A stretch of 64,000 nt of DNA, taken from positions 3,466 to 67,465 of the forward strand of contig CAJTYF010000003.1 in the NCBI GenBank assembly GCA_910583945.1. The letters run 5' to 3'. The first letter of the stretch is position 1. Each line of letters opens with the position of its first letter. This document shows, piece by piece, positions 9,001 through 12,000 of this stretch. The position numbers were made by a program. This DNA comes from an uncultured Bacilli bacterium. GTDB lineage: Bacteria > Bacillota_I > Bacilli_A > RF39 > UBA660.

Positions 9001-12000
9001 TTAAAATTTCTAAAGCTTGTAGTTTTCCTTGATTATCAATGTTTAAGCATTGTTTAATTGTCCGATTATAGCCTGGTTGTGTAACGATTGTGTCTAAATT
9101 CAATTCGCTCGTATTGTATTTTGCCAAAAAGGCTAAAGCTTGGTCTCGTATCTGTTGTGCACTTCGTCCAGACGACAATATATCGTATAAGGTATTTGCA
9201 ATTATATCATTCTTATATTCGGTACATATATTTTCTTGAGATTTAAATATATATACATAAGTTAAAGTTTTTTCTAAAACGGGAACTAAAGTAGAATCGT
9301 CAACATTTAAAAGAATTGCTAAATCATCCGCGTCTAATAAATAAGGTGGAATTGTAATTCTTTCAACATTTCCCGCTTCATAAAGATTTTGAGATAATAT
9401 TTTTACATTAATATTTTGATGTTCATTAATTTTAGTTAATGCTGAGATGTATTCACCATAAGCATCAAACATAATGATTTGAGAATTTTTGGGGTTAGGC
9501 TTATTTTCCGCAAATAAATTTTGAATTAAACGAGCAACACAACAAGATTTACCAGCTCCAGTATTCCCTACAATTGCCAAATGACTTGAAAATAAATCGT
9601 TTACTTTTACAGAAATATTAAATCCATCGTAAATCGTTGATTTTCCAAGAAGTAGATTTTCAGGAACAAAAATATCTTGACTTCCAATAATATATTCTAA
9701 TTCTTCTTTGTAAACCACACGGCATTTTGAATCAATAGATGGATAATTTTCAGTACCTGGTATAAAAGATTTATTTCTTATTTCACCTATTAAGCGAATA
9801 TGAAATTCTAATTCGTTAACAAATTCTATTTCTCCAACAAGTTGCTTTTTACTTTCAAAAACAACATAAAAGCCTATAATATCAATTAAGGATATTTTTT
9901 TCAGATTTTCTACTTTAATGATTCTATCTTCAATTTTTAATATTTTTCCTAACATCTTTTATCGCTCCTTTTATTCTTTATAGATTTTTAGTCTACGTTT
10001 AGTATAACAAATTTCCAAATAAATAAAAAGATAGAAAATTTACTTTCTATCTATTTGACATGAATTATGCCATAATTTCCATCTTTTCTTTTATATAAAA
10101 TTGACGTACACTCTTCATTACTATTTTTAAAGACAAAAAAGTCATGCCCTAATAATTCGTATTGCAAAATTGCTTCTTCTTCGTCCATCGGTTTAGAATT
10201 AATATTTTTGATTTTTACTATTTTTGACTCATTTTTTTCTTCCTTGTCTATTTCGTAATCAAAATTCAAATCTATTGCTTCTTGGCTTTTATATTTATTT
10301 TTAATTCTAGTTTTATTTTTTCTTATTTGTCTTTCTAGTTTATCAATGACTAAATCTAAACTTGTGTATAAATCTTCGCTTCTTTCTTCAGCCCGAATGG
10401 TAAATTGTTTGGTAGGAATCGTTACCTCGATTTTTTGAGATAAATTGTTTACTTTAATGTTCACGACAATATTAATCGTTTCTGGAGAATCAAAATATTT
10501 ATCCAGTTTACTTAATTTTGAAGTCACTTGTTCTCTTATAGCGTCTGTAATAGAGACTTTGTCTCCCCTAATAGTTATATTCATCAATACACCTTCCTTT
10601 GAATTTTATTATAACATGGAACCTACTTATTTTGTAAAATTAATTTATTATCTTTCTTATTGAATAACATTAAATTATTTTTTAACCTAATAGAAATCTT
10701 GGACGAATGCCATATGAATCGGCAGCTCCATTGCTAAAAGATCCACCAGTACTACTGACAATAGCAAAAGAAGGCTTATATGTTACGTTCTTAAGCCAAT
10801 AATTAAACCTTACAGTTGCATTGGTTTCTGGGTTAATATAACTGTTAATATATTCGGGTTTAAGTTGAAAAATTGCATATTGTCTATTGTCTATTCCTGT
10901 ATCACGCATATTTGAAGAAGCAACTGGTGCTCCATAAACATTCATTTCACTCATCAAATCAATTTCTCGTTCAAACCATGCCCATTCACTAGAAGCTCCA
11001 CTACCGCTTGTTCCCATTCCTGAACTTATACTTTCAGTACTCATTTTTGTTGTTAATATATTTCTGTATTTTAAAACATGACTATCTCCAAAAATATTTT
11101 TAATAATTATTAATTGCTTTAATAATATTTCTGACACCATTTTACTTCCCATGTAGGCTTGATAACCTTCGATATTAATAGTGAGGGTACTATGGGTATC
11201 ATTCATTGAAGCGTTGCCTAAAGTCGTTGCGGGTATTATTGTTGCATGATGTTTGGTAAGTGGCGTATCTCCACTATATAAATAATTATCAATATCGGCT
11301 ATTAACCAAATGTATTCTTTTCCATCAGTATGAATCGTTTTTATATAATCACCGACATATATGTCTTCAAAACTTCCATTACTGATTCTTGTATATAAAC
11401 TTCCATCTGTATAATAACGAGTTATATCTTTTCCTCGATACGTATTTCGATGTAACGCTTTTCCTGCTTCAATGTATTTATTGTATTCTTCTTCACTTAA
11501 TCCACTTGTAAACTCGACGTTGCATTTTGATTCACTGCTGACATTGTTTAATACTAAGTTCCAATTGTTATAATCCCATTCCCCAAACGTTCCATTCGTA
11601 CAATGCAAATTTGTTTTATATAACCCTCTTTCTGGAATACTTTCGCTTTTTTTATCATCAATGACGACAGAAAGCATTTTAATATCATAACCAAATTCAG
11701 GAATTTTTCCTTTTAATACATTAAAACTTTTCTTCATAGAAAGCAAACGTTTTATATAACGTGATACTTCCTATTATTAGTAGTATTCCTACTATAGAAT
11801 AAATGATTTTTTTATTCTTTTTGTTTCTGGTAAACCTTTCTAGTTGGTTATTAGTTTCTAATAACCCCATTCTTAAATTTAATCTTTTTCATTTTCTTTT
11901 TTCCTTCCTTATTAAATTTATTTCATAACCAAACAAAGTTCTTTACCTTATTTGTAATTCAATTATAATCAATTTATTCTATTTAAACAAGAAAAAAACT

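Follow-up and report, generated by a model that had tools for sequence, protein, structure and literature searches.

The opa genes of Neisseria carry CTCTT pentanucleotide repeats in the region encoding the leader peptide, and the tracts that vary have many units. Poly-G/C contingency loci are known from the phasomes of Campylobacter, Neisseria and Helicobacter. Silent cassettes, as in Neisseria pilS/pilE, Borrelia vls and Mycoplasma genitalium MgPar, have no promoter or start and feed a single expression site. A gene split between two frames can also be read through: at the prfB slippery site, CUU UGA C, ribosomes undergo programmed +1 frameshifting.

Here we compare these systems with copy 1 of a multi-copy gene family in uncultured gut Bacilli, whose products combine an N-terminal membrane anchor with a DUF6273/C-type-lectin-like ectodomain. 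The window, by which we mean the whole 64,000-nucleotide stretch analysed, holds four copies. Copy 1 had been predicted to carry a 5-nt deletion that makes it a reversible slippage site, a silent recombination donor or a pseudogene. We conclude, with a probability of roughly 80%, that copy 1 represents a loss of function at one locus of the family, a heritable and segregating allele and not a hypermutable switch.

Results

A 5-nt deletion separates anchor and ectodomain in copy 1

Read directly from the minus strand of the window, copy 1 has GAAGAAAAG-TTTTAATG at the anchor-body junction, within the wider context TTTGCTTTCTATGAAGAAAAGTTTTAATGTATTAAAAGG, and its tract is 5 nt shorter than in the paralogues and in more distant relatives (Table 1). 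These readings, together with the frames on either side, bear out the original prediction that a 5-nt loss cuts the signal-anchor from the body. The position needs correcting: the lesion had been placed at 11740-11765, an interval that covers the end of the transmembrane (TM)-coding segment, but it actually lies at 11727-11735, 5-13 nt outside. With a period of 5 over the 13 nt of the intact tract (AAGAAAAGAAAAG), the five missing nucleotides have no unique position. The site maps to the linker joining the TM helix and the ectodomain; an AF2 model of the intact copy-1 orthologue places the helix at 19-47 and a low-confidence linker at 45-66.

Because the 5-nt loss falls within the coding region, it shifts the frame, and the body ORF stands at +1 relative to the anchor ORF. 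If a TTG is taken as its start, the body ORF extends over 10682-11746. The claim that the body can begin only at an internal codon (ATG or TTG), without the anchor, also holds, and no Shine-Dalgarno (SD)-like sequence lies upstream of the body ATG at 11737 on the minus strand. Ribosomes reading the anchor would stop at a TAA one codon past the lesion. Since the ectodomain ORF is at +1 and has neither a ribosome-binding site nor an export signal, the locus would be expected to yield no surface protein.

Table 1 Positions of features of copy 1 and of its paralogues within the window
Feature	Position	Strand	Basis
TATAAT box of the upstream leader, conserved across the four copies; putative promoter	11962-11967	-	alignment
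Upstream copy of the 11-nt direct repeat TTTGGTTATGA	11923-11933	-	allele alignment
SD AAGGAAGGA preceding the family start codon	11902-11910	-	leader alignment
Minimal gene-conversion tract; copy 1 equals copy 3 and is unlike orthologues L011 and L004 at all diagnostic sites	11857-11942	-	alignment
Short ORF MKKIKFKNGVIRN, then stop, from the family start ATG 11890-11892, out of the anchor frame	11851-11892	-	translation
TGGGG remnant where copies 2 and 4 have G10; identical to copy 3	11865-11868	-	alignment
Truncated anchor ORF, 49 aa, MGLLETNNQLERFTRNKKNKKIIYSIVGILLIIGSITLYKTFAFYEEKF, then stop (MGLLETNN...YKTFAFYEEKF), TAA at 11721-11723	11721-11870	-	ORF translation
Residual GAAGAAAAG at the 5-nt deletion site, one of two AAAAG/GAAAA units gone	11727-11735	-	sequence comparison
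Body ORF, 351 aa from ATG 11735-11737 (MKKSFNVLKG...), protein P0124	10682-11737	-	ORF translation
Downstream copy of the 11-nt direct repeat TTTGGTTATGA, codons F-G-Y-D	11685-11695	-	allele alignment
Second mosaic patch, seven substitutions between the window and L011, each state shared with some paralogue	11444-11537	-	alignment
Copy 2, reading TATGAAGAAAAGAAAAGTTTTAATGTA at the junction	34969-36153		
Copy 3, reading TATGAAGAAAAGAAAAGTTTTAATGTA at the junction	54912-56066		
Copy 4, reading TATGAAGAGAAGAAAAGTTTCAACATA at the junction	62332-63228		

The 22-nt junction of copy 1 is the derived state: 14 distinct family loci, some of them from other species, have an in-frame junction of 27 nt (TAYGARGAR...TTYAAYGT). 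The shorter form is confined to copy 1 of the window and two other assemblies of the same locus. Copies 2-4 had been said to share the reading GAAGAAAAGAAAAGTTTTAATG, and copies 2 and 3 match it to the letter; the junction of copy 4 is equally long and differs by four substitutions. Copy 4 carries a TGG-to-TAG change at an invariant Trp and is missing the invariant YWLKNVV. Pseudogenization is common in the family, and copy 4 is an example.

The deletion segregates with intact alleles and a second knockout

We reached the locus in other assemblies through its neighbours hpf, agrB and csp, and the alleles compared are consensus assemblies. The same 5-nt deletion is present in L011 (ERR3199594) and in L006/L013 (GCA_949841435.1). 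The 351-aa products of the deletion allele form two clusters, P0124 (three NCBI contigs) and P0125 (two ENA contigs), that differ at two residues. Around the deletion, 12 substituted sites and a 6-nt indel distinguish the window from L011, which indicates two deletion haplotypes. All deletion alleles, and no other aligned allele, carry a linked T (TNL instead of TNV), and they are identical to one another for more than 100 nt on each side of the deletion. Since the linked substitution is common to all one-unit alleles, it points to a single origin and identity by descent rather than to recurrence. One further allele, L005, combines two units with the immediate downstream flank of the deletion alleles; from its sequence, it could be either the parental allele or a repaired one.

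Across the 2,010 nt of the upstream flank, the window shows no difference from either the intact strain L010 or the deleted L011. The body ORF is open throughout, and its 3' 750 nt do not vary among the strains compared. An open and unchanged body ORF is what a recent event predicts, yet it is compatible with retention for some use. Exact-product look-ups of the 351-aa body, the 49-aa anchor and P0124 found nothing on record, and site-spanning patterns with 1-4 units had no match in JGI metagenome contigs.

Copy 1 sits between csp and hpf. In other strains (L009, L012), this same csp–gene–hpf locus is knocked out by a 244-nt deletion bounded by the two 11-nt direct repeats listed in Table 1. 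The 16 contigs with a full product in the 90% cluster divide into five intact alleles (399/406 aa), five with the 5-nt deletion and six with the 244-nt deletion. The lesion is therefore useful as a marker of a locus that has been inactivated repeatedly in nature, by two independent deletions in 11/16 contigs. An Rfam search of the neighbouring csp leader gave only a weak, sub-threshold cspA thermoregulator match.

One of two adjacent AAAAG units has been lost from the linker that follows the TM helix, probably through a single replication misalignment between them. The resulting allele segregates alongside intact alleles and the independent 244-nt knockout, and is reversible only via recombination with an intact paralogue or allele.

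A poly-G tract is the candidate switch of the family

Copies 2 and 4 each contain a G10 tract, and these are the only G/C runs of at least 6 in the window. Related loci spanning 242 kb contain 56 tracts of at least 7 G. Within the 5' coding region, the family has tracts of G9-G11, so that runs of at least 9 G/C occur in the family and not in copy 1. Tract length is the sole internal difference over ~2.4 kb between the related locus L098 (G11) and the window (G10), and G11 gives MKKIKFKKGGGVIRN followed by a stop. Among relatives, G9 is in frame in 4/5 cases and G10 is out of frame in 34/34. Taken together, these sequences look like those of contingency genes, with a run of about ten G near the gene start as the family's probable switch. 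With TGGGG in place of the poly-G tract in copy 1, the SD-led start codon is out of frame. The locus is thus doubly disconnected in the window, conversion from copy 3 having also replaced poly-G by TGGGG.

The family is highly expanded: in MAGs from rabbit and mouse gut, a genome has dozens of copies. Scanning contigs with copy 2 alone as the query returned no relative; a scan with a 21-sequence alignment returned 118, none closer than 64%. None of the window copies had a hit in Pfam, PF19789 (DUF6273) included; that model matched 4/21 family members below threshold (best E 0.001). A first AF2 model built from 21 sequences had a pLDDT of 63 and gave only noise in Foldseek-PDB, and a profile search of PDB sequences returned nothing. 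The family has the same fold as a solved DUF6273 domain. A literature search of limited scope turned up no account of the family, nor any of poly-G switching in bacteria of this kind. As far as that search goes, the family is undescribed, and it resembles a contingency-gene system in low-GC gut commensals.

Gene conversion flanks the lesion and leaves it in place

Copy 1 keeps its leader (TATAAT, SD and both ATGs), which matches that of copy 3 exactly. A consensus promoter and terminator scan of the window found no terminator and passed over the conserved TATAAT leader, because the -35 partner, TTGTTT, matches at only 3/6 positions. As copy 1 retains both the predicted promoter box and the SD, it is not a promoterless silent cassette. 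Its identity to copy 3 spans about 11798-11990, beyond the minimal tract, and a second mosaic patch lies on the other side of the lesion (Table 1). The alignments show gene conversion to either side of the lesion, with neither tract having repaired it. Conversion thus reshuffles the 5' third of family genes between copies and leaves the lesion where it is.

These tracts invite the proposal that copy 1 is kept as an archival reservoir, donating segments of its unique 3' lectin-like module to expressed copies by gene conversion, with a function like that of pilS, vls or MgPar cassettes. The family's architecture would suit such a role, since the 5' module is homogenized (85-100% identity between copies) and the 3' module divergent (about 25-80% identity per 60-nt window). 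Copies 3 and 1 show conversion tracts, and where strains have the same flanks, dense SNP patches set them apart in the 5' third only; the body ORF is open in both kinds of knockout. We nevertheless regard a donor role as quite unlikely. A promoter-like box and SD of its own argue against a dedicated silent cassette, and copy 1 is seen only as a recipient. Neither the 22-nt junction (17 loci compared), nor the 3' module of copy 1, nor other copy-1-specific sequence was found at other loci in the few genomes sampled. Intact alleles of the locus exist, which argues that the disruption is no fixed design feature, and with strains so nearly identical, a recent event accounts for the open body ORF. 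Of the original suggestion of a silent cassette or recombination donor, the exchange among copies is evident; the kept TATAAT and SD and the recipient-only record speak against the remainder, and pseudogene is the best label for copy 1.

A wider version joins the frameshifted copy 1 and the nonsense-bearing copy 4 into an archive of unique lectin-like 3' modules, moved into expressed paralogues, or repaired from them, by segmental gene conversion via the homogenized 5' module, so that poly-G ON/OFF switching would be combined with cassette-style antigenic variation. We consider this unlikely. If it were true, the 'dead' copies would belong to the system in a poly-G-switched family of uncultured gut Bacilli.

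Slippage, residual expression and assembly error

Slipped-strand switching would have the AAAAG repeat expand and contract at high frequency, toggling copy 1 in the manner of opa CTCTT. The loss does equal exactly one tandem pentanucleotide unit, the site lies between export signal and mature part as in opa, and one-unit and two-unit states are both present at the orthologous locus. But the intact copies have two units and copy 1 only one, against a published cut-off of at least five: phase-variation predictors with PhasomeIt-type criteria require at least five pentanucleotide units, and Neisseria opa loci with 1-4 units were scored non-variable (PMC5953494). After the loss, just a 3-nt AAG...AAG microhomology is left as a template for re-expansion. 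No three-unit allele occurs in 17 loci, where one- and two-unit states are the only ones seen, and the marker shared by the one-unit alleles makes them identical by descent. In any case, the window has about as many two-unit repeats of period 5 as chance would give (96 observed versus 97±10 expected from first-order Markov simulations), and the same is true of period-5 tracts of at least 13 nt (4 seen versus 4.7±2.2 expected from the same kind of simulation). The family, moreover, already has a bona fide hypermutable tract in its poly-G. Reversible slippage, as originally proposed, is therefore not borne out by a site with two units, no three-unit allele and a single origin, and we judge it highly improbable.

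Expression of the split gene is a similarly remote prospect. It could proceed by +1 frameshifting at AAG-UUU-UAA-U, where tRNA-Phe would re-pair from UUU to UUU over a slow stop, as in prfB, and give an anchored protein minus two residues; or by termination followed by reinitiation at ATG 11737, giving an anchorless ectodomain. P-site re-pairing at the stop codon would be perfect in +1, which is the body frame, ATG 11737 lies 14 nt upstream of the stop, and the body ORF is intact. However, no SD-like stimulator precedes either the slippery codon, where GAAGAAAAG stands and no GGAGG-like element is found, or ATG 11737. The arrangement is not conserved, orthologues and paralogues being in frame, so that it appears to be an accident of the deletion. 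The SD-led start in the window is out of frame with the anchor, and an anchorless ectodomain would remain cytoplasmic.

Two further routes were considered and rejected: transcriptional slippage at the upstream A7 run, with which the TM segment would fall out of frame, and the ATG within TAATG at the stop, which lies in the third frame (ATG TAT TAA).

That the true genome has two AAAAG units, and the gap is a sequencing or assembly error, is extremely unlikely: although the window seemingly comes from a metagenome-type assembly of a repeated gene family, and contigs in other assemblies often break within these genes, the same 5-nt gap occurs on a different haplotype in at least two assemblies from other samples (L011; L006/L013), gene callers called the 351-aa product in five contigs, and a 5-nt loss outside a homopolymer is untypical of short reads. 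The refutation by sequencing error that the original prediction allowed for accordingly fails, the deletion being found in independent assemblies, on two haplotypes and in five contigs.

Discussion

The flagged lesion is an ordinary null allele within an interesting contingency-gene family. As a segregating knockout of one paralogue, it carries little weight by itself.

Each of the described systems shares part of its layout with this locus. As in opa, a pentanucleotide unit lies between export signal and mature part, a change of one unit shifts the frame of the mature part, and the gene belongs to a multi-copy surface-protein family with recombination between copies. Unlike in opa, the copy 1 site went from two units to one, is at chance frequency, shows no further length states and has a single origin. 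The resemblance to prfB consists of a slippery codon followed by a stop (UUU UAA U), with perfect +1 re-pairing into the frame of the downstream ORF; in contrast to prfB, there is no upstream SD-like stimulator, and the shift site is not conserved in orthologues and was created by a recent deletion.

With pilS, vls and MgPar, the family has in common several partly homologous copies, segmental conversion and some copies unable to make a product. Copy 1 departs from them in retaining the start codons, SD and promoter-like box of the family; other strains carry an intact orthologue of it, and it is nowhere seen as a donor. At the level of the domain, DUF6273 (PF19789) is exemplified by the N-terminal domain of the Thomasclavelia ramosa IgA peptidase (PDB 9qa6). 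Unlike that enzyme, the family consists of an N-terminal TM anchor and a small beta domain, with no peptidase.

The poly-G/C contingency loci offer a further likeness. Their hosts differ from those of the present family, which are uncultured low-GC gut Bacilli. As in those phasomes, the family has G9-G11 tracts whose length varies between otherwise identical loci. The likeness belongs to the family and not to the flagged site, since in copy 1 the tract is reduced to TGGGG.

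Lesion and reading frames of copy 1

We read the lesion in copy 1, with a probability of about 0.8, as a real but ordinary, non-programmed null allele, polymorphic in the population, at a repeatedly inactivated locus of a poly-G family. On the minus strand the site reads ...ATCACGTTATATAAAACGTTTGCTTTCTATGAAGAAAAGTTTTAATGTATTAAAAGG..., and alignment of 5' regions makes copy 1 exactly 5 nt shorter than copies 2-4. The original prediction had this loss right but put it at 11740-11765, the end of the TM-coding segment; the lesion lies 5-13 nt lower. Its claim that frame separates anchor from body is borne out by the ORF listing, in which the body ORF is +1 relative to the 49-aa anchor ORF; from the ATG at 11735-11737 the body is 351 aa (MKKSFNVLKG...). 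The tract ascribed to copies 2-4 is present in copies 2 and 3 (GAAGAAAAGAAAAGTTTTAATG); copy 4 has substitutions (GAAGAGAAGAAAAGTTTCAACA).

Features of the copy-1 locus and its paralogues, by position in the window
Feature	Position	Strand	Detail
hpf, flank of copy 1	10051-10587		
Body ORF, overlapping anchor ORF	10682-11746	minus	354 aa from TTG (ORF listing)
11-nt direct repeat TTTGGTTATGA, codons F-G-Y-D	11685-11695		window equivalent
Anchor ORF	11721-11870	minus	MGLLETNNQLERFTRNKKNKKIIYSIVGILLIIGSITLYKTFAFYEEKF, then stop (ORF listing)
Residual GAAGAAAAG, lesion site	11727-11735	minus	
SD-led short ORF	11851-11892		copy 3 equivalent about 56047-56088
SD-led ATG, copy 1	11890-11892	minus	
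SD AAGGAAGGA, copy 1	11902-11910	minus	
11-nt direct repeat TTTGGTTATGA, leader copy	11923-11933		window equivalent
TATAAT, copy 1	11962-11967	minus	
Cold-shock gene (csp), other flank	12002-12301		
Copy 2	34969-36153		394 aa
Copy 3	54912-56066		384 aa
Copy 4	62332-63228 plus 62077-62310		
Copy 5	63355-64000		incomplete, extends past window end
G10 tract, 5' end of copies 2 and 4	36121-36130 and 63195-63204	minus	

Searching the window with blastn and tblastn identified four paralogues of copy 1. Copies 4 and 5 are arranged in tandem (62077-64000). Across 14 distinct family loci, other species included, the in-frame junction from TAYGARGAR to TTYAAYGT measures 27 nt; the 22-nt junction is confined to the copy-1 locus, so the short form is a derived deletion. 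With a period of 5, the intact tract spans 13 nt, and two-unit pentanucleotide repeats are nothing special in this window (GC 29.8%): 96 were observed vs 97±10 in first-order Markov simulations, as were four period-5 tracts of at least 13 nt vs 4.7±2.2. Several relatives from other MAGs (P0106, P0092, P0087/P0096) likewise begin at the A-rich YEE(E/K)K junction or have a frameshift close to it, e.g. P0106 MLLVLKKKKNSMTKGQIPDF, which hints at a possible general hot spot for indels, or at MAG errors clustering there.

Alleles of the locus in other assemblies

The copy-1 locus was recovered from other samples via neighbour-gene products looked up in public assemblies. The identical deletion occurs at L011 (ERR3199594 assembly) and L006/L013 (GCA_949841435.1). 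L004/L010 (ERZ15143677) keeps both units, and its 399-aa gene is intact; L005 also has two units, on a contig that stops within the gene. Around the deletion, 12 substituted sites and a 6-nt indel separate the window from L011, which makes them different haplotypes. Clustered at 90% identity, the proteins of this locus comprise intact 399/406-aa products (5 contigs), 351-aa MKKSFNV... products (5 contigs) in two variants, P0124 (the window's product) and P0125, and 338-aa products (6 contigs). As far as assemblies can show, the recurrence of the deletion on distinct haplotypes and in 351-aa products from five contigs excludes sequencing error.

A reversible slippage site, as originally proposed, is unsupported. 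All 5-nt-deletion alleles carry a linked substitution, TNL, where every other aligned allele has TNV, and they are identical for more than 100 nt on either side of the lesion. No three-unit allele occurs among the loci compared at the junction, and loss of a unit leaves only 3 nt of microhomology (AAG...AAG). In silico criteria for phase-variable repeats require at least five pentanucleotide units, and opa loci with 1-4 CTCTT units are classed as non-variable (PMC5953494). At L005, the sequence immediately downstream of the two units is that of the deletion alleles; this allele may be either the parental one or a product of recombinational repair.

The locus has also been hit by another knockout, independent of the first. 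At L009 and L012, 244 nt are missing between the two copies of the direct repeat; the anchor, the SD and the two start codons go with them, leaving the 338-aa product. With intact, 5-nt-deleted and 244-nt-deleted alleles all present, some strains keep the locus intact and others carry it broken in one of two ways. The DNA around it hardly varies: over 2,010 nt of upstream flank, the window shows no differences from L010 (intact) or from L011 and L013 (deleted), 2 from L012 and 39 from L009. Elsewhere in the window, copy 4 is interrupted by a nonsense codon, with no shift of frame: TGG->TAG at 62332-62334, at a Trp invariant in 21 aligned family proteins (A2) and at least 90% conserved in 94 (A3). 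It also lacks 21 nt (about 62170-62180) coding for the conserved YWLKNVV, and is thus a further decayed paralogue.

Mosaic structure and gene conversion

Between ~11990 and 11798, copy 1 of the window matches, without a difference, copy 3 of both the window and another assembly (L017). Within this stretch (11942-11857) it differs at all diagnostic positions from its orthologues L011 and L004, with TGGGG vs their GGGAGGGGGG in the poly-G region. In a second patch (11537-11444) the two deletion haplotypes are separated by 7 substitutions, and each state can be found in some paralogue. No differences separate the window, L011 and L004 between 11434 and the stop codon, a stretch in which paralogues show only ~25-80% identity. 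Patchwork 5' identity alongside a locus-specific 3' region divides family genes in two: the leader, anchor and first beta domain make up a homogenised 5' module, and the 3' module is specific to each locus. Conversion tracts lie on both sides of the lesion, which was left unrepaired, and copy 1 appears to be a recipient. That copy 1 is kept as a sequence reservoir for other copies fits the mosaicism, but we consider it improbable: its 22-nt junction was not found at any other locus compared.

Expression signals, protein fold and neighbouring genes

Of the silent cassette or pseudogene originally suggested, the pseudogene holds, as a null allele by frame break; copy 1 is not a promoterless cassette, since it keeps the leader common to all copies (perfect TATAAT, SD, and ATG 9 nt downstream in the 5'-region alignment). 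The G10 tract of copies 2 and 4 keeps their SD-led ATG in the anchor frame (MKKIKFKKGGGLLETNN..., MKKVKKTNGGGELLETNN...). Where TGGGG replaces the tract, as in copies 1 and 3, this ATG yields a 13-codon ORF (MKKIKFKNGVIRN, then stop), and the anchor ORF opens in another frame at the ATG within AATGGGG, without its own SD. No purine-rich element lies upstream of the body ATG at 11737, so window copy 1 is disconnected twice. Continued expression by reinitiation at that ATG or by +1 frameshifting is very improbable: AAG-UUU-UAA-U would let tRNA-Phe re-pair +1 at the stop, into the body frame, but an SD-like stimulator is absent and the orthologues' in-frame junction makes the arrangement an accident of deletion.

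None of the window copies matches Pfam; DUF6273 was hit by 4/21 relatives, all sub-threshold. In the AF2 model of P0030, the intact orthologue (94 sequences, pLDDT 84.5), the TM anchor forms a long helix (19-47); the other elements are a linker of low confidence (45-66), a small beta domain and a C-terminal alpha/beta domain. The deletion maps to the linker start, at YEEKK. Judged by this fold, we infer a membrane-anchored, ligand-binding surface protein.

An agr-like quorum-sensing set (AgrB, a 41-aa AgrD-like ORF, a HATPase_c_5 histidine kinase and a LytTR response regulator) adjoins copy 1 at 12482-15268, and the window also encodes the sporulation proteins SpoIIID, SpoIID and Spo0A. A weak Rfam cspA thermoregulator match (12070-12147, minus; 27 bits vs gathering 78) overlaps the annotated 99-aa csp ORF, and the true Csp start is probably the internal MRGKVKWFN.

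The poly-G tract of the family

The family context is a more interesting lead than the flagged lesion itself. The only G/C runs of at least 6 in the 64-kb window are the two G10 tracts. Over about 2.4 kb, L098 (ERR3199695 assembly) has one internal difference from the copy-2 locus, G11 (L098 88-98) vs G10, and with G11 the gene is out of frame. Scanning species-representative genomes with a profile gave 118 relatives; every one comes from a MAG labelled 'uncultured Bacilli/Tenericutes bacterium', with mouse (MGBC), rabbit ('Lapin') and further samples as sources, and one MAG holds dozens of copies. Nearly all relatives have a G9-G10 tract in the anchor-coding part, reaching the usual poly-G contingency threshold of at least 9 G; among the tracts counted in relatives from rabbit and mouse gut MAGs, G10 was out of frame in 34/34 and G9 in frame in 4/5. 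Many contigs in other assemblies terminate within family genes or at the G tract. From sequence, this looks like a poly-G contingency family, with the tract, not the flagged site, as its genuine hypervariable element and putative switch. With a start codon in each of two frames around the tract, copies 1 and 3 resemble Haemophilus lic loci, which have a multi-ATG arrangement.
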